64,000 nt of DNA. Origin: a virus. Position 1 is the first letter of the stretch; every line of letters begins with the position of its first letter. The translations under genes were made by a program, and so were the position numbers. Of the stretch, positions 4,171 to 32,460 are shown piece after piece. The notes below the pieces were generated by a model, which was not told the origin of the DNA, did no database searches, and saw only the letters and a program-made list of their open reading frames with translations. The stretch spans positions 1-64,000 of IMG/VR virus record IMGVR_UViG_3300031963_009342; one strand, 5' to 3'.

Positions 4171-4231
4171 AAAACTTTGTATAAAATCAAATTTTATAAT
4201 ATTTATATCTAGAACATAATAAGGTAAAAAT

Positions 4232-4788: not shown

Positions 4789-5700
4789 ATGAATCTAGGC
4801 AAGAAACTATTTGTAATTTATCCAGGCAGATTTCATCCCTGGCATAAAGGGCACAAAGGCGTATTTGATTATTTAAGTACAAAATACGGTGGTAACGAAG
4901 TATATATAACAACTACCGATAAAGTAGAGCTACCAAAGTCGCCATTTACGTTCGACGAAAAAGCTAAGATGATGGTTTTAACCGGTATACCGTTAAATAA
5001 AATAATAAAAGTAGTACAAAATTATAATGTACAAAATTTAGTGGGTAAAATTCCAATTGATATCAATAGAGACAGTATCATATTTGTTGTAAGTGAAAAA
5101 GATATGGCGGAAGATCCAAGATTTAGTAAATTTACTAAAAAGGATGGATCTCCAACTTATTTACAACCAATTCCTAAAAATTTAACCAAGTTACAACCAG
5201 CTATAACTCATGGATATATTGATACAGTACCCACAACAGATTTTACAGTATTGGGTATGCCAGCTAGAAGTGCTAGTCAATTAAGAACACAATATACAAA
5301 TTTGACTTCTCAAAACAGAAAAGAGTTTATTAAAGATTTATTTGGTAAGTATGATGACGGGGTATTTAATATTATGAACACAAAATTAGGTAATTCAGCT
5401 CAACCGATATCAGAAAACCAAAAGAATATATTAAAACGATTGATTCGTGGAGTTTTAAAAGAAGATGAATCTAAGGTTAAAAACATGAAGAAGTTAGCTG
5501 ATATGGCTTTGCAAAAACAAAGACAGGCAGAATTAGACGATGCAAATGAAAAATTAGATTCAGCCGAAGCACAACAAGACGTGGCTACATCTGATGAAGA
5601 TAAAAAGAAATCTGATGATGCTGTTAAAAGAGCTAAGGATATTGTTAAAAAAGCTGACATGATGCTTCAAGCGGCTAAACATCAAGTACAATCAAGTTAA
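4789..5700 (+). CDS. HIGH-family (cytidylyltransferase-like) nucleotidyltransferase with C-terminal coiled-coil extension
   Basis: YPGRFHPWHKGH (HxGH), SPFTFDEK and SASQLR; charged helical tail. Confidence 0.8.
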   Translation: MNLGKKLFVIYPGRFHPWHKGHKGVFDYLSTKYGGNEVYITTTDKVELPKSPFTFDEKAKMMVLTGIPLNKIIKVVQNYNVQNLVGKIPIDINRDSIIFVVSEKDMAEDPRFSKFTKKDGSPTYLQPIPKNLTKLQPAITHGYIDTVPTTDFTVLGMPARSASQLRTQYTNLTSQNRKEFIKDLFGKYDDGVFNIMNTKLGNSAQPISENQKNILKRLIRGVLKEDESKVKNMKKLADMALQKQRQAELDDANEKLDSAEAQQDVATSDEDKKKSDDAVKRAKDIVKKADMMLQAAKHQVQSS

Positions 5701-6763: not shown

Positions 6764-6797
6764 AATATAATATATCTATATTTATATTATATAATTT

Positions 6798-9263
6798 ATG
6801 GCAGATAAATTAACATCATCTGATTTAGATTCAATGAAAAAATCGTTGGATCTTATGACCGATTTGTCTAAAAATTTACGTAGTGAGTTTATTAAAATAA
6901 AGAACACAACTGACGTTTTAAGTCAGGATTTCAAGGACATTGTAAAATCCGCGACGGATAATAAAAATATAGCGGAAAGATATCTAATAACACAGAAAGT
7001 AATTGCTGTTTATTCTGAAAAAATTAACGAATTAAAATCCAAATCGGGATATTTAGACAAAGTTTCTCTGCAGTTTAAAAAGAACGAAGTACTTTTACAA
7101 AATCAAATCGTTAAACAAAATATTAATCTACTTACAGATCAGATAAACAAAGGTAAAATAGACGCGGCCGAAGGACTCAAACGAATTGAATCGTTAAAAA
7201 TGCAAAGAATTGAACGATTGGGAGAACTGAATGTTTTAGAACGATTAAACGGTAAGAACAATAAAACTCTTGACAACTTATACAAACAACGTGAATCCTC
7301 GGAAGAAATTATAAATAATATTGAATTAATCAGTGAAAATGAAAGCATAAGAAACAAACTTTTAGGAATAGGTAAAAAAATATTAGGCGATATGGGTACG
7401 CTCGGTTCAGCGATCACAAAATCGTTTGACGTGGAAAAATTAAATAAATGGAAAGTTGCCCTAGAACTCGTGACGCTTATTTTAGAAAAGGGTTACGAAA
7501 ATTTCAAATCATTCGATAAAACTGCAGTTTCGGTAAGATCTAATTTAGGCGTTCTTCCTGGTCAAGCAAATAAACTTGAATCATTAATTAAAGAAGTCGG
7601 CATCGATTCCATGCATTTGGGTGCAACGTTTGAAGATATAGGTAAATCTATAACGGCAATTGCTGGTGAGTTTAATTCTCTTGTTGCACAAGATAAAGAA
7701 TTGTTAAAAACAACAACTGCTTTAGCAAAACAGTTTGGAATTGCAGAAGGAACTAGTGTCAAGTTCTTGAAAACACTTGGTGGTATATCGGGCAGTTCTA
7801 CATCTTCACAGAGATCAATGGCAGGATTTGCACAAAAAATAGCACAAGCTGCGGGCGTACCTCTGGGAAAAATAATGGAAGATATTGCAAATGCAAGTGA
7901 TGATGTTAGAATATATGTTGGTAGTTCTGCTGTTTCTATGATAAAAGCTGCCGCTGCGGCAAGAATGATGGGTATTGATTTAAATAAAGCGGCTTCAAGT
8001 GCAGAAAAACTTCTTCAATTTGAAACTAGTATAAATGCGGAATTAAAAGCGAGTGCTTTACTAGGTCAAAATATTAATTTTAATTATGCTCGACAGTTGT
8101 CATTTAACAAAAATATAATTGGAGCTAATCAAGAAATATTAAAAATTGCAAAACAAGTTAATTTCAATCAACTAAATCCAATTCAACAAAAAGCATTTGC
8201 CGATGCAGCGGGTAAGAGTGTAGGTGAATTACAAGATATGTTGACACAAGAGAAGAATATACAACTTGTCAGAGACGGTACTAACGAAAAAGCAAAGAAA
8301 GCTTTGGCAGATTACGAACGATTAATGCAATTGAAAGAAGAAGAAGCAAAAAATATAGGTAAAGTCGCAGAACAGGAAATTTTGAGAAAAGCTAATCAAG
8401 AAAAATTAGCACAAATACAAAATAAATTTAACCAACTCATGAGTGAGTTATCTGAACCTGTTATGGAAATTACGGGATATCTACTAGATATAGCAATCGG
8501 CATAATGCCTCTTGTTACAAATGTTGTCAAATCGGGAATATTTATGTTTAAAGGATTATCCGTAATAGTTGGTTTTGTATCAACCAAGCTTGGAGAATGG
8601 ATAACAAAAATTTCGGCGTTTGTTGGTCCACTAAGTCGTTCAAGTAAAATTTTGTTAAGCATTGGAAAGTTTATACTTCCAATTATCACAGCTTTCGGAA
8701 AATGGTTAACTCCGATTGGATGGGTAATAACAGCTTTTATGGGACTTAAAAGCTTAATGGATGGTTTCAAAAAATATTGGGATGAAAGTGCCGATTGGCC
8801 ATCAAAAATGTGGACTGGATTAAAATTATTAGCAAAAGCTATAATTGAAGCATTTTTACCATTTGAAGATGTACGTAAATATTTAGACAAATGGTTTTTC
8901 GGAAAATCTCCATCAATGGCCGGAAAATTAATAATGAAAGGATTTTCTTCAATAGGTCCTGAATTACACGATTCTTTAACAAGACCGATGGAGAGTGCTT
9001 ATAAAGATATTGAAGACATGTCTCCACCTGGAATAAACGTAGAAAATACTACTACAAACAAACTTGTTGAAAAATCGGATAACGAATTGATATCTGCTAT
9101 TAATACAAGTAACCAACAATTAATTGCAAAAATGGACCAGTTAATAAATTTGATGGCAAATGGTGGTATTGCTGTAAACATGGATGGTCAACGTGTACAA
9201 AATGCTTTATCAAGAGTTAACTATAGATCAGGTGGATTTGGTCAATCAACAACATTAGCTTAA
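6798..9263 (+). CDS. Tail tape measure protein
   Basis: 821 aa helical, Ala/Gln/Leu-rich protein with hydrophobic segments near aa 570-680; follows the chaperone genes. Confidence 0.85.
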   Translation: MADKLTSSDLDSMKKSLDLMTDLSKNLRSEFIKIKNTTDVLSQDFKDIVKSATDNKNIAERYLITQKVIAVYSEKINELKSKSGYLDKVSLQFKKNEVLLQNQIVKQNINLLTDQINKGKIDAAEGLKRIESLKMQRIERLGELNVLERLNGKNNKTLDNLYKQRESSEEIINNIELISENESIRNKLLGIGKKILGDMGTLGSAITKSFDVEKLNKWKVALELVTLILEKGYENFKSFDKTAVSVRSNLGVLPGQANKLESLIKEVGIDSMHLGATFEDIGKSITAIAGEFNSLVAQDKELLKTTTALAKQFGIAEGTSVKFLKTLGGISGSSTSSQRSMAGFAQKIAQAAGVPLGKIMEDIANASDDVRIYVGSSAVSMIKAAAAARMMGIDLNKAASSAEKLLQFETSINAELKASALLGQNINFNYARQLSFNKNIIGANQEILKIAKQVNFNQLNPIQQKAFADAAGKSVGELQDMLTQEKNIQLVRDGTNEKAKKALADYERLMQLKEEEAKNIGKVAEQEILRKANQEKLAQIQNKFNQLMSELSEPVMEITGYLLDIAIGIMPLVTNVVKSGIFMFKGLSVIVGFVSTKLGEWITKISAFVGPLSRSSKILLSIGKFILPIITAFGKWLTPIGWVITAFMGLKSLMDGFKKYWDESADWPSKMWTGLKLLAKAIIEAFLPFEDVRKYLDKWFFGKSPSMAGKLIMKGFSSIGPELHDSLTRPMESAYKDIEDMSPPGINVENTTTNKLVEKSDNELISAINTSNQQLIAKMDQLINLMANGGIAVNMDGQRVQNALSRVNYRSGGFGQSTTLA

Positions 9264-24355: not shown

Positions 24356-26644
24356 ATGAATAAAGAAATTTTTATAAAGAAGAGAAATGGTAATACTGAG
24401 AAATTCAACGCAGACAAGATCAACAAGATCTTACAATGGGCTACGGAGGATATAAAAGGTGTTAGTTTTGAAGAAGTCGCAATGAATGCTCATCTGTCAT
24501 TCTTTGATGGAATGACATCTAAAGATATTCATTCTATGTTAATTGAAGCTTCTGCTAATCTAATTACAGAAGAAAAACCAAATTATCAATATGTAGCATC
24601 TCGTTTGCTAAATTATCAATTGAGAAAGAATGTTTGGGGAGGTAAAAATCCACCTAAACTATATGATCTAGTAAAAACCAATATTGATGCTTTGGTTTAT
24701 GATGGCGGTATTCTTGACTGGTACAGTAAACAAGAATTTGATAAACTAGATGAGTTTTTAAAGCATGATCGTGATTTTAATTTCACTTATGCTGGTATCA
24801 AACAGTTGTGTGATAAGTACTTGGTACAAAATCGTATTACTAAGACAATTTATGAAACTCCCCAGTTTGCATATATGCTTATCGCCATGACTTTCTTTAA
24901 GGACTATAAAGAAAAGAGACTGGATTATATAAAGAAAGCATACAACTACTTTAGTAAGCATAAGATTAATCTGCCAACGCCTATTATGGCGGGTGTAAGA
25001 ACTCCTATGAAGAGTTATGCTAGTTGTTCTCTCTTTACAGTAGATGATGATCTACGTAGTATTTTTAGTAATAATAGTGCTGTAGGTTTTGCTACCGCTA
25101 GTCGTTATGGAATTGGATTGAATCTATCCAGACTACGTGCTACAAACGCTCCTATTCGTAACGGAGAAGTTGTACACACAGGTCCAATTCCATTCGCTAA
25201 AGCATTTGAATCTACGGTAAAGAGTTGTCACCAAAATGGTATTCGTGGTGGTAGTGCTACGGTAAACTTTGCTTGGTTCCATTATGATATTCTAGATATT
25301 CTTGTATTGAAGAACAACCAAGGTACCGATGATAATCGTGTTCGTAAACTAGACTATTGTGTTGGTTTGGATAAGTTAATCTTTGAAAGATTTCTACAAA
25401 ATAAAGATGTAACACTATTCAGCTATCACGAATGTCCATCACTTTGGAATACATTTGGTATGGAAGGTTTCAAAGAAAAGTATGAAAAGGTTGAAGCTAA
25501 CAAGAACATTAAGTTTAAAAAGAAAGTACCTGCTCGTGAATTGATGGGACTACTTGCTAAAGAACGTCTTGAAACCGGACGTATTTATACAATGTTCGTA
25601 GATCATGCTAATGAACATGGTAGTTGGTTGGATCAGGTAGATACAAGCAATCTATGTCTTGAAGTAAATCATCCATTGACTCCAATTTATGATGTTAATG
25701 ATCCAAACGGTGAAATCGGCGTTTGTGTGTTAGCAGCACTAAATTGGCTGGAGATTAAAGATGATGATGAAATGGCAAGTGTGTGTGACATCATCGTTAG
25801 AATGTTGGATGCTTTGATTGATCATCAAGAATATTTCGTACCAGCAGCAAAGAATTTTGCTACTAAACGTCGTAGTCTAGGTGTAGGTGTAAGTAACTTG
25901 GCTGCTCTATTGGCTAAAGAAGGTTTGAAGTATTGGGATAATAAGGCTCCAAACTTTGTTGCCAAGTGGATGGAAAAGACCAGTTATTATCTAATCAAGG
26001 CTAGTGTACAAATGGCTAAAGAAATTGGTAAGTGTGAGAAGTTTGAACGTACTAAGTTTAGTCAAGGAGTATTACCAATTGATACTTATAAAAAGGATGT
26101 AGATGAATTCATTACTGAACCACTACATTGTGACTGGGAATCTCTACGTGAAGAAATCAAGAAATATGGTATGAGACATAGCACACTTACTGCTTGTATG
26201 CCAGTTGAATCTAGTAGTGTAATTCAAAGTAGTACCAATGGTATTGAACCACCTCGTAGTGCTATTAGTTTCAAGGGAAGCAAGAGTAACATTTTGCCTG
26301 TAGTTGTTCCTAATATTGACAAGTACAAAGAAGATTATACTTTTGCTTTTGATATGCCAAGTAATGAAGGTTACTTGAAGGTAGCAGCTGCTATTCAAAA
26401 ATTTACGGATATGAGTATTAGTACAAATACTTACTATATTCCATCTCGTTATGATAAAAATAAAGTTCCTGTTCAAGAAGTAATTAAGGATATGTTATTG
26501 GCTTACAAATATGGTCTAAAGAACTTGTATTATGCTAATACTGATGACGGTGATAAACAAACCGTTATGGACGAAAAGAAGACAGAAACAAAACAACCAG
26601 TAGTACAAGAATCCGGTTGTGAAAGCGGAGCTTGTGCTCTATAA
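24356..26644 (+). CDS. nrdA: Ribonucleotide reductase class Ia alpha subunit with ATP cone
   Basis: IKKRNG..EKFN cone, PTPIMAG, ASCSL, SNLCLE, GLKNLYY and C-terminal CESGAC. Confidence 0.97.
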   Translation: MNKEIFIKKRNGNTEKFNADKINKILQWATEDIKGVSFEEVAMNAHLSFFDGMTSKDIHSMLIEASANLITEEKPNYQYVASRLLNYQLRKNVWGGKNPPKLYDLVKTNIDALVYDGGILDWYSKQEFDKLDEFLKHDRDFNFTYAGIKQLCDKYLVQNRITKTIYETPQFAYMLIAMTFFKDYKEKRLDYIKKAYNYFSKHKINLPTPIMAGVRTPMKSYASCSLFTVDDDLRSIFSNNSAVGFATASRYGIGLNLSRLRATNAPIRNGEVVHTGPIPFAKAFESTVKSCHQNGIRGGSATVNFAWFHYDILDILVLKNNQGTDDNRVRKLDYCVGLDKLIFERFLQNKDVTLFSYHECPSLWNTFGMEGFKEKYEKVEANKNIKFKKKVPARELMGLLAKERLETGRIYTMFVDHANEHGSWLDQVDTSNLCLEVNHPLTPIYDVNDPNGEIGVCVLAALNWLEIKDDDEMASVCDIIVRMLDALIDHQEYFVPAAKNFATKRRSLGVGVSNLAALLAKEGLKYWDNKAPNFVAKWMEKTSYYLIKASVQMAKEIGKCEKFERTKFSQGVLPIDTYKKDVDEFITEPLHCDWESLREEIKKYGMRHSTLTACMPVESSSVIQSSTNGIEPPRSAISFKGSKSNILPVVVPNIDKYKEDYTFAFDMPSNEGYLKVAAAIQKFTDMSISTNTYYIPSRYDKNKVPVQEVIKDMLLAYKYGLKNLYYANTDDGDKQTVMDEKKTETKQPVVQESGCESGACAL

Positions 26645-26656
26645 TAGGAGGAACAG

Positions 26657-27715
26657 ATGAAGAGTGTATTAAATAAAAAGAATATAGACCAATTAAGAAA
26701 TCCAATGTTTCTAGGAGAAGATCTATCTCTACAGAGATATGATTTGATCAAGTATCCTAAATTCTATGAGTTGTATGATCAACAATTAAACTTTTTCTGG
26801 AGACCACAAGAAGTTTCTCTAGTTAAAGATATTAGTGATTACAAAAATCTTTCACCAGAAGAACGATTTGTATTTGATAGTAACTTGAAGTTTCAAACTA
26901 TGACTGACAGTATGTTGAGTCGTAGTATTCACGAACTAATGAAACACGTTACTAATAGTGAACTAGAAATTTGTATGAATACGTGGAGTTTCTTTGAAAC
27001 TATTCATAGTAACAGTTATACATACATTCTTAATAATGTTTATCCAGACGCTACCAAGTTTTTTGATAGTATCTTGAATGATGAAGAAATTGTTAAGAGA
27101 GCCACTGCTATTAGTAAGAAATATGACGAACTATTAACACCATCAGATGATGTTAAACAACAATTGTTTGATGCTGTATTAGCTACTCAGATTACTGAAG
27201 GGTTAATCTTCTATGTAAGTTTTGCTTGTAGTTTTTATTTCGGATATCGTGGAAAGATGGAGGGTAATAGTAAGATTATTAAATTTATCAGTAGAGATGA
27301 AAATCTTCACGTAGCTATTACCCAAAACATTATGAAGAACTGGATTAATAATCCAGATGAAGGATTCCAAGATATTGTTAAAAAGAATGAAGACAAGATA
27401 TATGCTGCTTATGAAATGGCAGTAAATGCAGAAAAAGACTGGGCTGACTATCTATTCAGTAAAGGTAATCTAGTAGGTCTAACAAGTGAAAGTCTAAAAC
27501 ACTATGTTGAATGGTTAGCAAATAATAGACTAAGTAGTCTTGGGTATAAAAAGTTGTATCCTAATGCCAAGACTAATCCGTTGAGTGGATGGTTGGATAG
27601 TTACTATGATAGTAAGAAATTGCAAGTAGCCCCCCAAGAAACCGAACTAAGTAGTTATGTAAAAGGTGTAGATAATACGATCACCGAAGGTGCATTTGAT
27701 GACTTTAAATTGTGA
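26657..27715 (+). CDS. nrdB: Ribonucleotide reductase class Ia beta subunit
   Basis: FFWRPQEV, FETIHSNSY, EGLIFYVSF, RDENLH and QVAPQETE. Confidence 0.97.
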   Translation: MKSVLNKKNIDQLRNPMFLGEDLSLQRYDLIKYPKFYELYDQQLNFFWRPQEVSLVKDISDYKNLSPEERFVFDSNLKFQTMTDSMLSRSIHELMKHVTNSELEICMNTWSFFETIHSNSYTYILNNVYPDATKFFDSILNDEEIVKRATAISKKYDELLTPSDDVKQQLFDAVLATQITEGLIFYVSFACSFYFGYRGKMEGNSKIIKFISRDENLHVAITQNIMKNWINNPDEGFQDIVKKNEDKIYAAYEMAVNAEKDWADYLFSKGNLVGLTSESLKHYVEWLANNRLSSLGYKKLYPNAKTNPLSGWLDSYYDSKKLQVAPQETELSSYVKGVDNTITEGAFDDFKL

Positions 27716-27741: not shown

Positions 27742-27770
27742 AACGGGTACTTAAATAGTATCCGTTTTTT
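27742..27770 (+). terminator. Rho-independent terminator
   Basis: AACGGGTACT...AGTATCCGTT stem followed by a T-run. Confidence 0.8.
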
Positions 27771-27793
27771 TATATATTTATATATACTTAATT

Positions 27794-28348
27794 ATGGAAA
27801 CATTTTTTAACTATTTAGAAAAAATAATTGTAATAAGCGCTGCTGGAGGAGTACTTTTTGGTGCTTTTAAATGGGTATTTATATTAAATAAAAATATTAA
27901 GGAAATTTTATCCGAAGTCAAACCAAATTCAGGCACTTCTTTGAAAGATCATATTTCTAAAATAGAAAAACAAGTATGCCATGACAGCAATTTGATACAA
28001 ACTATTTGTATTAGACAAAAATGGTTATTAGATAATCGTCCAGAACCCATATTTGAATGTGATACGCATGGTAATTGTACGTGGGTAAATGAAAAATATT
28101 GTCAGTTATTAAAACACGACGTTGAATATTTTTTGAATAATGGATGGAAAAACGGCGTACACCCAGAAGATTTAGAATATGTAGAAAAAGAATGGGAAAA
28201 AACCATAAAAGATAAAAGAAGTAGTGTTAGTACTCATAGGGTGGTTGATAGAGAAGGTACGATTTATAACGTGCGCGTAATCGCTACACGAAACGACAAT
28301 CACGGATATATAGGACACATAGAAGTGTTATCCAATAAAAAAGAATAA
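27794..28348 (+). CDS. Membrane-anchored single PAS-domain protein
   Basis: N-terminal hydrophobic helix IIVISAAGGVLFGAFKWVFI; PAS signature PIFECDTHGNCTWVNEKYCQLL...GW..GVHPEDL...HRVVDREG. Confidence 0.85.
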   Translation: METFFNYLEKIIVISAAGGVLFGAFKWVFILNKNIKEILSEVKPNSGTSLKDHISKIEKQVCHDSNLIQTICIRQKWLLDNRPEPIFECDTHGNCTWVNEKYCQLLKHDVEYFLNNGWKNGVHPEDLEYVEKEWEKTIKDKRSSVSTHRVVDREGTIYNVRVIATRNDNHGYIGHIEVLSNKKE

Positions 28349-28378
28349 TAATTGATCCACAAACACTATTTATATAGT

Positions 28379-29011
28379 ATGAAACATTCCAAAGAATTAG
28401 TAAATAAATTAGTTAAAGAAACTCTTGAACAAAAATATACAAACGCATCCGCTTCTTGGTCTGATTTAATTGATGAATTATCCAAAGATATAAAAAAACC
28501 AATTGTATTGGACGATGCTGGTAATTATAACGTATGTGAATGTGAACCGTATCATATTAGTATACGTCCTATAATACACGGTATCTGTGACGTACAAGCA
28601 TTTAAAGATTACAGCGACAGAACGAAGAAATTGTTTAAAACATTTGATGAAGTTAAAAAGTTTGTCAAAGAATATCTAAATAGTAAAGATTCAAATTATG
28701 TTGATTCTGCTTATCAACGCAATGTTGAAAATAGTAAAGATAAAGAGGGTGGTAAAAAGGCAGATAAAGCTTCTGATGAACAAAACTTAATTGATCCGGA
28801 AAAAAACAACAAAGTGGTGAAAAACATCAAGGCCGACCCAATGAATAAAGAAATTGACGATCCTACTCAACCAATGCGTGAGGTAGAAAAATTTGAAAAA
28901 CAAATTGATCGTAAAAGCAAAAAACCAAGTTATACTCCTCCTACTCTTCCTAAAAATTTGCAAAAATTGGTTGTTAAGTATACAAAAGCTGGTAAGAAGA
29001 AAAAGAAATAA
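28379..29011 (+). CDS. Hypothetical Lys-rich late protein
   Basis: ATG 28379 lies 4 nt after TATTTATA; LVKETLE resembles head-protein processing leaders. Confidence 0.6.
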   Translation: MKHSKELVNKLVKETLEQKYTNASASWSDLIDELSKDIKKPIVLDDAGNYNVCECEPYHISIRPIIHGICDVQAFKDYSDRTKKLFKTFDEVKKFVKEYLNSKDSNYVDSAYQRNVENSKDKEGGKKADKASDEQNLIDPEKNNKVVKNIKADPMNKEIDDPTQPMREVEKFEKQIDRKSKKPSYTPPTLPKNLQKLVVKYTKAGKKKKK

Positions 29012-29033
29012 TTTTATTTTAGTTTAAATTTTT

Positions 29034-29273
29034 ATGATACCAGAATACAATCCAAACGATTATAACGCAGTAATATCACGAATTGATGTAAGTTTAAAAA
29101 ATATTACTGATAAATTAACAGCGATAGAAACTAGTGTAAACGCAAACGTAATTCAAGTAGAAAAACGATTGACTTTGTTAGAACAGTTTAAATGGAAGTT
29201 GATAGGAATAAGTACAGGTATAACCTCTATATTTGCAACATTAGTACATTATTTTACAAATAAACAATCATAA
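29034..29273 (+). CDS. Coiled-coil plus C-terminal TM protein (XhlA/holin-like)
   Basis: VEKRLTLLEQFKWKLIGISTGITSIFATLV architecture. Confidence 0.55.
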   Translation: MIPEYNPNDYNAVISRIDVSLKNITDKLTAIETSVNANVIQVEKRLTLLEQFKWKLIGISTGITSIFATLVHYFTNKQS

Positions 29274-29297
29274 TAATTTTTATCGTCCAATCAAACC

Positions 29298-29324
29298 AAA
29301 AACCATCTAACCGATGGTTTTTTT
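29298..29324 (+). terminator. Rho-independent terminator
   Basis: AAAAACCATC-taacc-GATGGTTTTT. Confidence 0.75.
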
Positions 29325-29334
29325 ATTTTTTGTG

Positions 29335-29362
29335 TTGACTTCTTATAAGTCCGTGGTAAGAT
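29335..29362 (+). promoter_or_regulatory. sigma70-like promoter
   Basis: TTGACT-16-TAAGAT with TGn. Confidence 0.7.
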
Positions 29363-29384
29363 GGATTTACGGTAAGAAAAACAT

Positions 29385-30356
29385 ATGAAAAATAAAAACT
29401 CACTAAGTCTGGTTACTAGCAAGGATTTTGATATTAAAAGTTATCTAAATACCTGTGTCAATCTTCGTCCTTCTTCTTTGATCATGGACGATCTAAAGTG
29501 GAAGTATATGGTACGTAGTGCTATTCGTGGCAAGAACATTCTGCTTCTTGGTCCAACTGGCTGTGGTAAGACTCTATCTGCACAGACTGTAGCTAAGGCT
29601 ATTGGTCGTGAAGATAACTTCTTCTATTTTAATTTGGGGGCTACGCAAGATGCTCGTAGTGCTTTGATCGGTAATACCCACTTTGATAAGAAGACGGGTA
29701 CTTTGTTTAAGGAGTCTAGCTTCATCAAAGCGATTCGTACTCCAAATGCCATCATTCTTCTTGACGAAATTTCTCGTAGCCATCATGATGGTGTAAATAT
29801 TCTAATGACTGTTCTGGACGATCTACAACGTTATCTACGTCTTGATGAAAAGGACGATTGTGAAGTTGTCAAGGTTGCTGATGGCGTTACTTTTATTGCT
29901 ACAGCTAACGTAGGTAACGAGTATACCGCTACACGTGTAATGGATCGTGCTCTGCTTTCACGTTTTCCGGTAAAGATTGAAGTAGTTCCTCTTGACAAGG
30001 ATAGTGAATATAATCTACTAAAGAGTCGTTTCAATATCGTAGGCGAAGATCAGCTTGAGATTCTCAAGTCTGTTTGTGAAATTGCCGAACATACACGTAA
30101 GCAGGTTAAGCAGGATGACAGCAAGCTAACGAATTTTATTCCTACACGTTCAACTGTTGAGATTGCTGAACTTATTGTTGATGGATTTAATTTGCTTGAA
30201 ATTGCAGAGTCAACCATCTATCCTAACTTCAGCGATGACGGAGGTGTAGACAGCGAACGTACTTATATTCGTCAGCTTGTACAGAAGTACATCAAGGTCG
30301 AGTCTAAGGAGAAGTTGTTCAATGATCCGTTAAAGAACGATCAGCCTCCTTTCTAA
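29385..30356 (+). CDS. MoxR/CbbQ/CobS-like AAA+ ATPase
   Basis: GPTGCGKT, ILLDEISR, IATAN and MDRALLSRF. Confidence 0.92.
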   Translation: MKNKNSLSLVTSKDFDIKSYLNTCVNLRPSSLIMDDLKWKYMVRSAIRGKNILLLGPTGCGKTLSAQTVAKAIGREDNFFYFNLGATQDARSALIGNTHFDKKTGTLFKESSFIKAIRTPNAIILLDEISRSHHDGVNILMTVLDDLQRYLRLDEKDDCEVVKVADGVTFIATANVGNEYTATRVMDRALLSRFPVKIEVVPLDKDSEYNLLKSRFNIVGEDQLEILKSVCEIAEHTRKQVKQDDSKLTNFIPTRSTVEIAELIVDGFNLLEIAESTIYPNFSDDGGVDSERTYIRQLVQKYIKVESKEKLFNDPLKNDQPPF

Positions 30357-30381
30357 TAACTAAATAAACAAACAAACTATT

Positions 30382-32460
30382 ATGAGTAACTATAGTGATT
30401 TCTGGTTGAAAGACAACCATTACGAATGGGATTGGGAAGATGAACTAAATGTGGCTATTGAAGAAGAAGCTGGCACGGATACCAATGTTGATGCTGAGGA
30501 TCGTGTTAGTGAGAATACCGCTAGATTGATTCGTCTTTCGTCCGCTCGTCGTGCTGTTGCTAATTATGTCAGTATTCTTACGAATCAGAATGTACCTGTA
30601 GTATTCAATGATAGTGCAGTAAATTGTACTGATGGTAAGGTGGTTTATATCAGTAGCGATATTACTAAGAAGGACAATTTTGATGTGGCTGTCGGACTAG
30701 CCTTACACGAAGGCAGCCACATCAAATATTCTGACTTTGAAATGCTCAAGACTGTATGGATGAATGTACCCCGTGACATTTATAACTACTCTGAAAAGTT
30801 GAATATTTCAAAGGACGAGGTAGGTAAGACTTGTCAGACAATTCTAAACTATGTAGAAGATCGTTTTATCGATTATACAGTACATCGTAATGCTCCTGGT
30901 TATCGTGGATATTATGATGCTTTGTATGATGAATACTTTAATAACAAGGTAGTCACCGATGCTTTGGAAAGTGATTTGTATCGTACATTGAGCATTGAGT
31001 CTTATTTGTATCGTATTATTAATCTTACAAATCCAAGTACCAATCTAAAGGCACTGCCTGGTTTGTATGATATCGCTAAAGAACTAGATCTTACCAATAT
31101 TAGTCGTTTGATTACTGCTAAGTATCGGTTGAACGTTGCTTATAAAATTGCTGAAATTGTGTTTAAGAATATCAATGAACATACTCAACAGCAAGGTGAA
31201 ATGACGCTGGGTCAAGATGTAGGTATCGGAGAAGGTACTTCGTCTGGGACTTCTATGTCTACTGATAGTAGCAAAGATGCATCTGATGTACTTGGTGGTA
31301 CAGAATCAACTGTAACCACTGATAATACAACTGTTGTTTCAGATATTGGCAACGATCCTAACGTTAGCAAGACCAAACAAAGTAAGATTACAAAGGCTTT
31401 TGAAAAACAGAAGAATTTTATTGCTGGTAAGATCAAGAAGAAGAAGGTTTCTAAACGTGAAAAGGCACTATTGGACGTTCTTGAAAAGAGTCAGATCGAT
31501 CTAGTGCCGGTAGCGCAAGAAATGCTTAAGGCTAGTGGTATGATTGGAAATATTGAGTGTATTCTTGTAAAGAATATGACTAAGGATCTTATTATGTCTG
31601 AGGAATTTCCTATGGGTATTGGTAGTAATAATGAAATTACTCGCAAGGAACTTCAAAAAAACATAGATGATGGTATTGTATTGGGTACAAAACTAGGTCG
31701 TCGTCTTCAAATTCGTAATGAAATTAATATTGATAAGTTTACTCGTCGTAATTTGGGCAAGATTGACAAACGGTTGATGCACGAATTGGGGTTTGAAACC
31801 GATAGCAATATCTTTTACAACACATTTACAACTAAATATAAGAAGGTTAATTTTCATATTAGTGTAGATGCTAGTTCTAGTATGCGAGGCAGTAAGTGGA
31901 ATCGTACAATCAAGTTGTGTGTAGCACTAGCTAAGGCTACATCTATGATTGATAATGTGGATCTTACTATTAGTTTTCGTACAACTATGAGTAATAATCC
32001 ATATATTCTAGTTGCTTATAATTCTAAAGTAGATAAATTTATTAAAATTAAGAATTTGTTTTCTTATTTAATTCCTGTAAATACAACTCCTGAAGGATTG
32101 TGTTTTGAGGCACTAATGAAGTTCTTGCCAAAAGCCGATGGTAGTACAAATAGTTATTTTGTTAATATTAGCGATGGTGAACCTTGTTTTTTCTATAACA
32201 ATACAGTAACTCACATTTCATTTGCTTATCGTGATAAGGAAGCTTGTGAACATACACGTAAACAAGTAAAGAAAATCAAGGAATCTGGATATAATATTAT
32301 TTCATACTTTGTATCGGATTATGATACATTCGGCCTTGACGTTACACGTAATAACTTTAAGACTATGTATGGTAGTGATTCACATTTTATTAATGTAGAG
32401 AATCTGAATCAGATTGTAAAAACTGTTAATAGCAAGATGATGGAAGCTATTGACTTATAA
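30382..32460 (+). CDS. VWA-domain protein with N-terminal HExxH metallopeptidase-like domain (CobT-like)
   Basis: LHEGSH..NYVEDRFID; MIDAS DASSSM, TPEG and ISDGEP. Confidence 0.88.
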   Translation: MSNYSDFWLKDNHYEWDWEDELNVAIEEEAGTDTNVDAEDRVSENTARLIRLSSARRAVANYVSILTNQNVPVVFNDSAVNCTDGKVVYISSDITKKDNFDVAVGLALHEGSHIKYSDFEMLKTVWMNVPRDIYNYSEKLNISKDEVGKTCQTILNYVEDRFIDYTVHRNAPGYRGYYDALYDEYFNNKVVTDALESDLYRTLSIESYLYRIINLTNPSTNLKALPGLYDIAKELDLTNISRLITAKYRLNVAYKIAEIVFKNINEHTQQQGEMTLGQDVGIGEGTSSGTSMSTDSSKDASDVLGGTESTVTTDNTTVVSDIGNDPNVSKTKQSKITKAFEKQKNFIAGKIKKKKVSKREKALLDVLEKSQIDLVPVAQEMLKASGMIGNIECILVKNMTKDLIMSEEFPMGIGSNNEITRKELQKNIDDGIVLGTKLGRRLQIRNEINIDKFTRRNLGKIDKRLMHELGFETDSNIFYNTFTTKYKKVNFHISVDASSSMRGSKWNRTIKLCVALAKATSMIDNVDLTISFRTTMSNNPYILVAYNSKVDKFIKIKNLFSYLIPVNTTPEGLCFEALMKFLPKADGSTNSYFVNISDGEPCFFYNNTVTHISFAYRDKEACEHTRKQVKKIKESGYNIISYFVSDYDTFGLDVTRNNFKTMYGSDSHFINVENLNQIVKTVNSKMMEAIDL

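Follow-up and report, generated by a model that had tools for sequence, protein, structure and literature searches.

The timing of lysis sets the fitness and the burst size of a phage. To our knowledge, lysis inhibition in phage T4 is the only well-understood example of signal-dependent lysis timing, with a periplasmic antiholin that reports superinfection. The components of this system are the class III holin T and the antiholins RI and RIII (PMC11413866, PMC8385771). Here, we describe ORF1, a gene for a single-pass membrane protein with a PAS domain in a large uncultured phage, together with the downstream genes ORF2 and ORF3. The analysis covers a stretch of 64,000 nucleotides (positions 1 to 64,000 of the IMG/VR virus record IMGVR_UViG_3300031963_009342; GC content ~31%), referred to as the window. 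The reading we favour, albeit with less than even confidence, is that ORF1 is a sensor-gated lysis-timing factor, in which a membrane anchor of the type found in lysis cassettes is coupled by a helix to a cytoplasmic PAS domain.

T4 holin T resembles ORF1 in being a single-transmembrane (TM) protein of ~200 amino acids with a globular soluble domain that is expressed late, as ORF1 probably is. Moreover, T4 lysis inhibition and the reading proposed here share the concept of a soluble domain receiving a signal that sets the time of lysis, and the T4 lysis genes are scattered in the genome rather than united in one cassette, a further likeness to the ORF1 lineage. However, T has its N-terminus inside and its soluble domain in the periplasm, whereas ORF1 is predicted to have its N-terminus outside and its soluble domain in the cytoplasm. 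In addition, a separate antiholin reads the signal in T4, unlike the single polypeptide envisaged for ORF1. The initial annotation of the locus had pointed to T as a precedent; the topology and structure predictions that it proposed returned the single TM helix and a PAS fold, but placed the PAS domain on the opposite side of the membrane. The profile of T4-type class III holins (Phage_holin_T, PF11031) is absent from the Pfam matches of ORF1 at E ≤ 1, and with neither HMM evidence nor fold evidence among the best 50 of at least 500 Foldseek PDB matches, kinship of ORF1 to T was rejected. The designation of the soluble domain of T as 'GAF-like', likewise taken from the annotation, was not found in PMC11413866.

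As for PAS proteins, RsLOV, PpSB1-LOV and the heme-PAS of FixL share with ORF1 a PAS core with an N-terminal dimerising helix and no enzymatic output; unlike ORF1, which does not contain the LOV cysteine motif, they are soluble and bind flavin or heme. VqmA-Phi of vibriophage VP882 is reportedly a phage receptor with a PAS domain that couples a small-molecule cue to the lysis decision. It is said to be soluble and to act on the lysogeny switch as a transcription factor with a domain for DNA binding, whereas ORF1 is anchored in the membrane and lacks such a domain. Full-text searches returned no literature in which PAS domains are linked to holins or antiholins.

The anchor of ORF1 has counterparts among small phage membrane proteins. 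Proteins of phrog_9869 share with ORF1 an N-terminal TM helix, an N-out/C-in charge bias, the motif E-x-x-P-N-G-G-x-S-I/L-K/R-D and a following helix. Unlike ORF1, they comprise only 63-100 amino acids, end after a short coiled coil and are encoded beside endolysin genes. These proteins are termed short forms or short PNGG proteins below, and their PAS-fused relatives PAS forms.

Architecture of ORF1 and its anchor family

The features of ORF1 are as follows.

27794-28348, + strand: ORF1, 184 amino acids, single-pass membrane protein with a predicted cytoplasmic PAS domain and no output domain (open reading frame, Pfam, model)
27824-27886, + strand: TM helix of ORF1, residues ~11-31, predicted N-out/C-in (hydrophobic stretch and charge bias)
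27914-27949, + strand: linker motif E-V-K-P-N-S-G-T-S-L-K-D, residues 41-52 (family signature)
28025-28333, + strand: PAS domain, residues ~78-180 (Pfam and Foldseek)

ORF1 belongs to the PAS domain superfamily, as indicated by HMM matches above the gathering thresholds and by its fold. The Pfam scan returned PAS_3 (36.3 bits, cut-off 25.6, E 6.9e-9), PAS_4 (31.8 bits, cut-off 23.1) and PAS (24.7 bits, cut-off 22.6). The AlphaFold2 (AF2) model, built with 21 homologs, has a mean pLDDT of 82 and of ~90 over residues 60-180, and displays the five-stranded antiparallel sheet with flanking helices that characterises the PAS fold. A long helix at residues 50-80 leads into this domain, and a break of low pLDDT at residues 43-46 lies within the linker motif, between two helices. 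Only PAS domains are found among the PDB matches of the model listed by Foldseek (probability 1.0, identity 10-20%, TM-score (target) up to 0.82), including FixL, the PAS domain of Leptospira LIC_11128, RsLOV, short LOV proteins, Aer and NifL. In BFVD, other 'PAS domain' proteins of ~170-205 amino acids from uncultured Caudovirales were aligned to ORF1 over their full length.

A kinase, cyclase or DNA-binding domain was not found in ORF1, and the Pfam scan gave no HisKA or HATPase match. The protein ends ~4 residues past the PAS domain and does not comprise the DHp and catalytic ATP-binding domains of a sensor histidine kinase. The initial description of a TM-linker-PAS protein without kinase or other output is therefore borne out by Pfam, the AF2 model and Foldseek. 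LOV-type or heme-type sensing was considered in view of the fold matches, but was rejected at this level of identity and with the LOV motif absent. Likewise, the cysteines C72, C89, C95 and C103 of the PAS domain are kept in close relatives but lost in distant members, which rules them out as a redox-active or metal-binding cofactor site of the whole family.

A set of 5.8 billion proteins contains 45 homologs of ORF1 with 44-97% identity, nearly all of them 180-215 amino acids in length. Residues E41, N45, G47, S49 and D52 are invariant, and the linker motif (E41, P44, N45, G47, S49, K51, D52) is better conserved than the PAS domain. Moreover, residues 35-68 match positions 62-95 of phrog_9869 (98 positions, E 4.7e-7). 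With the TM helix at residues 11-31, the motif at residues 41-52 and this significant profile match, ORF1 is a member of the PNGG-anchor family, and its anchor, judged from the sequence, is homologous to the small phage membrane proteins of phrog_9869.

The extent of this family was determined with a profile built from nine PAS proteins, of which the N-terminal 71-97 residues were used. Searched against 1.84 billion cluster representatives, this profile retrieved 713 clusters at E ≤ 0.001. Among the best 149 of these 713 clusters, 101 proteins have a length of 160-400 amino acids and 48 a length of 69-158 amino acids. PAS Pfam domains are present in 90 of the 102 long forms (160-400 amino acids, window protein included) among the matches listed. 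Besides ORF1, the fusion of anchor and PAS domain is thereby seen in about 90 clusters at 50% identity. The proteins of 69-158 amino acids mostly consist of the TM helix, the motif and a short coiled coil only, while a few look like truncated PAS forms. All of the ten short forms scanned match phrog_9869 (E down to 2.6e-14), and hhalign aligned the N-termini of the PAS forms with 33 short forms over 58 columns (98.7%, E 1.7e-16). The motif derived from 134 proteins reads I-x-x-E-[LVI]-x-P-N-G-G-x-S-[IL]-[KR]-D-x-[IV]-N-R-I-E. In 145 of 149 proteins, lysine and arginine residues are more abundant in the 15 residues after the TM helix than in the 15 residues before it (means 3.7 vs 0.34). Due to this bias, the motif and the PAS domain of ORF1 are predicted to reside in the cytoplasm and the N-terminus outside, with only ~10 residues exposed there.

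Gene neighbourhoods of the short and PAS-fused forms

Loci of short forms were collected from IMG/VR with a degenerate DNA motif pattern, which yielded at least 120 stretches, nearly all encoding short forms of 63-77 amino acids. A peptidoglycan-hydrolase-like gene is located within three genes on either side in 66 of 99 loci and directly adjacent in 47 of 99. When counted per sequence cluster of short forms, the association holds for 18 of 27, in several gene orders, and within one cluster the following gene swaps between an M15/VldE-like enzyme and a CHAP enzyme. The largest cluster of neighbours comprises 37 distinct sequences of 102-181 amino acids at offsets +1, -1 or -2, which contain the motifs SxHxxGxAxD and HxH and match phrog_32486. 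By their ESM Atlas features, they group at 0.96 with viral clusters carrying PF26571 (VldE), VldE being a characterised pneumococcal L,D-endopeptidase (PMC11667670). The second cluster represents a CHAP endolysin (Pfam CHAP, E 1.7e-10; phrog_21357 'endolysin', E 1.4e-61). The genes upstream of the short forms encode tail proteins, and several cassettes hold another small hydrophobic protein. An assignment of these hydrophobic neighbours (61-85 amino acids) as r1t-type holins was dropped as it found no Pfam support.

Because hydrolase genes adjoin them so often, the gene order identifies the short PNGG proteins as components of lysis cassettes that have so far escaped annotation, and they are probably common ones. 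Accessory single-TM proteins that co-determine lysis timing beside a separate holin are reportedly encoded in the lysis cassettes of mycobacteriophage Ms6 (Gp4/Gp5) and of PBSX (XhlA/XhlB). By analogy, the short PNGG proteins may likewise act beside a separate holin. A match to the XhlA family (PF10779) was obtained for neither ORF1, ORF3 nor the short forms, and no sequence kinship to the Ms6 and PBSX proteins was detected. In one viral contig of 8.7 kb (L146), two near-identical short PNGG genes were observed 4.7 kb apart in opposite orientation (83-274, + strand; 4934-5125, - strand), an arrangement that may reflect an inverted repeat or an error of the assembly.

The PAS forms are found in more diverse surroundings. 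The 24 loci inspected, for which 19 distinct proteins are listed, fall into at least five contexts. In the first, which is that of the window, the gene lies in the region of nrdB, ORF2 and an AAA+ ATPase gene. In the second, it is flanked by the genes for the terminase large subunit and an HNH-like protein on one side and by a T5-like portal gene on the other (PDB matches with E 3e-13 and 2e-85). In the third, kept in three loci (L148, L245, L279), the PAS form is followed by a 70-amino-acid membrane protein and a 308-amino-acid protein with weak similarity to the papain family. In the fourth, represented by locus L152, tail fibre genes are followed by genes for a 103-amino-acid multi-TM protein, the PAS form, a signal-anchored protein of 151 amino acids and a Peptidase_M15_4 endolysin (Pfam E 2.3e-10; phrog_2649 'endolysin', E 9e-23). 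In the fifth, the PAS gene lies 3' of the gene for a protein of 1814 amino acids. As these contexts differ, and some are of the lysis type while many, including that of ORF1, are not, the PAS forms appear to be movable, self-contained genes. In two relatives of the L152 phage, a GIY-YIG-like gene (N-terminal IGIYKITSP) was observed directly 3' of the PAS form (L275:3505-4125 and L276:330-950), where it takes the place of the spanin-like gene and the endolysin gene of L152.

The inspection of homolog neighbourhoods, which had been proposed as a check of a lysis function, thus gave a divided answer: the short forms mostly lie near hydrolase genes and the PAS form of L152 belongs to a lysis-type group, whereas the ORF1 lineage has no such gene nearby. 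In line with the initial annotation, an endolysin was not recognised in the window. Two related records, one of 173 kb (73% complete) and one of 132 kb (45% complete), each contain a single member of the anchor family. For the L037 record, CheckV estimates a complete genome of about 230 kb. A T4-type holin (Phage_holin_T) was not found in the related records G001 and G002 at E ≤ 0.1. The Phage_lysozyme domain occurs in G001 only within a 721-amino-acid open reading frame ~55 kb away, whose size suggests a tail-associated enzyme. In G002, Amidase_2 gave a sub-threshold match only, which contains internal stops and lies inside the PAS-gene region. Searches for the endolysin of the lineage with Peptidase_M15_4, CHAP and SLT gave no matches.

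Regulatory elements, ORF2, ORF3 and the surrounding genes

The features surrounding ORF1 are listed in the order of their positions.

24356-26644, + strand: NrdA, in the same block as ORF1-3
26657-27715, + strand: NrdB, just 5' of the following hairpin
27742-27766, + strand: intrinsic-terminator-like hairpin with T run after nrdB, conserved in 12 related loci
27773-27782, + strand: late-type promoter-like motif TATATTTATA, 12 nucleotides 5' of the ORF1 ATG
28365-28374, + strand: second late-type motif ACTATTTATA, 4 nucleotides 5' of the ORF2 ATG at 28379
28379-29011, + strand: ORF2, 210 amino acids, conserved; small alpha/beta N-terminal domain, disordered acidic/basic middle part, Lys-rich tail
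29034-29273, + strand: ORF3, 79 amino acids, optional cargo in a variable slot; long helix and C-terminal TM helix, residues ~54-73
29298-29322, both strands: bidirectional terminator-like hairpin at the 3' end of the unit, 5' of the AAA+ promoter
29335-29362, + strand: sigma-70-like promoter of the AAA+ gene, TTGACT-16-TAAGAT (from sequence)
29385-30356, + strand: AAA+ ATPase of the MoxR/CbbQ/CobS type, 3' of ORF3
30382-32460, + strand: large partner, 692 amino acids, labelled vWA/CobT-like from its position beside the AAA+ ATPase only

The stem of the hairpin upstream of ORF1 shows compensatory changes across the 12 loci (GGGTAC/GTATCC to GAGTAC/GTACTC), and in L041 it is wholly different. 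The terminators said to bound the unit are thus real on both sides. The motif TATATTTATA is unchanged in all of the 12 orthologous intergenic regions aligned 5' of ORF1. The exact 10-mer occurs four times in the window, in every case upstream of the start of one of three genes (6798, 16904 and ORF1); the gene preceded by the copy at 6777 occupies the tape-measure position. As 1.66 copies are expected, four are not above chance, and the evidence for this motif is its position and phylogenetic invariance, not its count. Likewise, ACTATTTATA is unchanged in 11 loci despite varying flanks, and is located 4-13 nucleotides 5' of the start in other loci. The sequence CTAT(AT)TTAT occurs six times in the window, exclusively on the + strand, and five of the six copies directly precede start codons, namely those of the genes at 4789, 6798, 9279 and 16904 and of ORF2. 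The core of the motif also precedes the tail genes at 6798, 9279 and 16904. The common core TATTTATA was observed on the + strand at 4200, 6779, 9267, 16880, 16892, 27775 and 28367; when read as its reverse complement, we take it to correspond to the late-promoter consensus of T4, TATAAATA. As it lies only 4-25 nucleotides 5' of start codons, the respective transcripts would have very short leaders or none. Genes such as that for the AAA+ ATPase are instead preceded by sigma-70-like elements (TTGACx-N16-18-TAnnAT). Given the invariance of the motifs, their occurrence at tail genes and the sigma-70-like elements elsewhere, we accept the late motifs claimed initially as a putative conserved regulatory element that ORF1 and ORF2 have in common with tail genes, but not for ORF3, upstream of which no late-type motif was found. 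ORF1 is therefore probably expressed late.

For ORF2, the TTG at 28352 was rejected as start codon; the invariant ACTATTTATA just upstream of the ATG at 28379 in 11 loci favours the latter. The protein has more than 200 close homologs, none with a Pfam domain or a name. Its conserved C-terminal tail (P-P-T-L-P-K-x-L-Q-K-L-V, followed by lysines) agrees with the predicted Lys-rich second protein of the unit. The AF2 model is poor (pLDDT 62) and, with this model, no significant Foldseek match was obtained. Family searches gave no Pfam match above the cut-off and only a weak, below-threshold match to phrog_15023 (E 0.029), and a link of ORF2 to lysis was not seen.

ORF3, for which only nine homologs were found, had been described as an XhlA-like coiled-coil/TM protein. 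Read from the sequence, it has the architecture of XhlA-type proteins (~70-90 amino acids, N-terminal helix or coiled coil, C-terminal TM helix), but it does not match PF10779 even at E ≤ 10, and an identity as XhlA was rejected, the likeness being one of architecture only. The ESM Atlas lead for ORF3 is the viral family DUF7201 (score 0.95), a family missing from the Pfam results, and the aligned Atlas model consists of one long helix.

The order nrdA-nrdB-PAS gene-ORF2-slot-AAA+ gene-large partner is fixed across the 45 related loci from IMG/VR. ORF3 occupies the slot in four of the 45 (L030-L033, 87% identity), and longer distant forms are present in L011 and L037. In most loci, the slot instead encodes a secreted protein with a signal peptide, which is absent from the window (29012-29384). 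Since ORF3 is confined to few loci and the slot is variable, ORF1-3 do not constitute a conserved module. Hence, while the three reading frames of the proposed terminator-bounded unit exist, a three-gene operon as a functional module was rejected, and ORF3 is exchangeable cargo. The slot protein (for example L001:9267-9584, L012:9285-9605 and L039:9278-9634) was observed to contain a conserved GDREWATVGKVLTG segment and 6-10 repeats resembling PQPVVY, and its C-terminus is rich in His and often reads HHHHHH. L030-L033, L011 and L037 carry both ORF3 and the PQPVVY-repeat protein, whereas the window has ORF3 instead. The genes for more distant PAS proteins (L130, L132 and L135, 32-41% identity) lie between a helicase or class II-like ribonucleotide reductase gene and the AAA+/large-partner pair. 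They are followed by an enlarged ORF2 homolog (hhalign 98-99%), sometimes with one gene inserted between. As the whole region is collinear in these phages, the adjacency of the PAS gene and ORF2 says little about function.

The + strand block that holds ORF1-3 also encodes a gp32-like single-stranded DNA-binding protein, a RecA/UvsX-like protein, a 5'-3' exonuclease and a DnaB-like helicase. Tail genes are located 5' of the block, and a long glycosyltransferase operon lies 3' on the opposite strand. The AAA+ ATPase (29385-30356) matches AAA_5, with CbbQ_C slightly under the cut-off, and phrog_249 ('porphyrin biosynthesis', CobS-like). For its 692-amino-acid partner (30382-32460), no Pfam or PHROG family was matched. 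The pair (29385-32460) has the sigma-70-like promoter upstream and is kept directly 3' of the PAS gene and ORF2 in all related phages. Further downstream, a DruA-like phage gene (33181-34365, + strand) clearly matches the Druantia defence protein DruA (PF14236, E 9e-20) and adjoins a UvdE UV-endonuclease gene. Moreover, nrdA is interrupted in two relatives, in L038 (L038:1750-6827) into three pieces with gaps of ~1.2 and ~1.5 kb and in L041 (L041:3982-6754) into two pieces with a gap of ~0.45 kb. Both share the site of the first break (residues ~434-449), and the breaks look like intron, intein or homing-endonuclease insertions.

Cultured relatives of ORF1 were not detected by tblastn against 50,697 phage records at E ≤ 0.01. 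Only a weak, N-terminal match to Caudovirales sp. ct2KA10 was obtained. A prophage search of 185,579 species genomes yielded five weak to moderate matches in all, which indicates that the anchor family is rare in prophages. The best of these matches for a short PNGG protein (47% identity) was observed in L280, a contig of 41 kb (40.9 kb; CAYVBV010000005.1) of a Polynucleobacter metagenome-assembled genome, possibly a host clue or a mis-binned phage contig.

A possible role in lysis timing and alternative explanations

According to the favoured reading, ORF1 would be a late, single-pass inner-membrane protein with its N-terminus outside and the remainder in the cytoplasm. The PAS domain would sense a cytoplasmic ligand or a redox or energy cue, and the signal would pass through the helical linker to the membrane anchor. 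The anchor would thereby change in how it associates with itself or with the hole-forming protein of the phage, and membrane permeabilisation would be advanced or delayed, ORF1 acting like a holin or an antiholin. We infer both the lysis role and the nature of the signal from sequence. In its predicted topology, ORF1 has the single TM helix and the charged cytoplasmic remainder of a holin, and its 184 amino acids place it above most holins and below T4 T in size. As the anchor family has only one representative in each of the related genomes, an antiholin mixing with a holin of the same family is unlikely, and ORF1 would act alone or on an unrelated holin. ORF2, a conserved neighbour, and ORF3, an exchangeable cargo gene, are not assigned to this mechanism. 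When extended to the PAS-fused anchor proteins at large, i.e. to hundreds of clusters at 50% identity, the notion that one polypeptide serves as a signal-gated holin or antiholin and sets lysis by an intracellular cue is possible but somewhat doubtful. The PAS-bearing holin or antiholin suggested initially is therefore retained in part: its anchor is homologous to the hydrolase-linked phrog_9869 proteins and some PAS forms reside in lysis-like groups, but no endolysin is encoded near ORF1.

Several observations weigh against a role of ORF1 in lysis. Neither an endolysin gene nor any other gene for lysis was found close to ORF1, be it in the window or in ~50 related loci, so that a genetic linkage is lacking; the distance of 8 kb covered in the related loci contains no endolysin in any of them, nor was the endolysin of the lineage found in the related records, which are 45-73% complete. 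ORF1 itself is located in a region of replication and nucleotide metabolism, between nrdB and ORF2 with the AAA+/vWA pair. The PAS forms occur in at least five unrelated contexts, one of them between terminase and portal genes, and L275 encodes a 65%-identical relative of the L152 PAS protein without an adjacent endolysin. As to the anchor, the homologous stretch is short (~58 columns) and partly TM helix, phrog_9869 is annotated as 'unknown function', and the short forms resemble a PHROG named holin only weakly (E ~0.006). The M15-like neighbours of the short forms have no Pfam match and owe the hydrolase label to motifs and the ESM Atlas match, and the baseline of ~10% within three genes on either side, calculated for a genome of 50-80 genes, is an estimate rather than a measurement. 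Finally, the T4 holin T chain is absent from the best 50 of at least 500 Foldseek PDB matches of ORF1.

The alternative that survives best, though we consider it unlikely, is that ORF1 is a membrane-tethered PAS module that pairs with host PAS proteins (sensor kinases or chemoreceptors) as a decoy or poison subunit, or that reports redox or energy state to a phage protein such as ORF2, the PNGG anchor being a generic anchoring or dimerising module. The missing output domain would fit such a role, as would the closest structures, which are dimerising sensor PAS domains (FixL, short LOV proteins, RsLOV), the many non-lysis contexts of the PAS forms, and the insulation of ORF1 by its own promoter-like motif and terminator, reminiscent of a moron. 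ORF2 follows ORF1 wherever the gene order is kept, even at 32-40% PAS identity; however, this synteny is limited to a single lineage of phages with collinearity throughout the region. Moreover, pairing with host PAS proteins leaves unexplained why the cytoplasmic PNGG motif surpasses the PAS domain in conservation and why the anchor alone is a lysis-cassette gene. In addition, we know of no phage PAS decoys.

A function in superinfection exclusion, or in another membrane-level defence or envelope change, with the PAS domain serving for regulation or interaction, appears improbable. A small single-pass membrane protein encoded by a movable, self-contained gene in diverse phages would suit it, and the adjoining slot holds exchangeable membrane or secreted cargo genes. 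However, exclusion proteins are usually the products of early genes, whereas the motif upstream of ORF1 matches that of tail genes. In addition, most of the protein would reside in the cytoplasm according to the predicted topology, which leaves only ~10 residues outside, and the relatives of the anchor are linked to endolysins and not to early regions.

Still less probable is a morphogenesis factor, i.e. a membrane-anchored assembly or packaging helper comparable to membrane-bound head-assembly chaperones with ORF2 and its Lys-rich tail as a packaged DNA-binding protein, since, although ORF1 and ORF2 carry the promoter-like motif of tail genes and a PAS form lies between terminase and portal genes in T5-like fragments, ORF1 has no similarity to any known assembly protein in Pfam, PHROG, Foldseek or BFVD searches, the gene position varies between lineages, the short forms are located 3' of tail genes next to hydrolases, and we know of no role of PAS domains in assembly.

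If lysis timing by ORF1 holds true, it would represent a solution different from that of T4, in which the phage reads the internal state of its host and acts on the membrane directly. The anchor family is large (713 clusters, with PAS-fused proteins in the majority among the matches listed) and has members in several phage lineages that are unrelated to each other and stem from lakes and other waters. Should the link to lysis fail, the family would still constitute an unexplained and highly conserved phage membrane sensor. As it is large and widespread, an experiment with one culturable member would annotate many genes.

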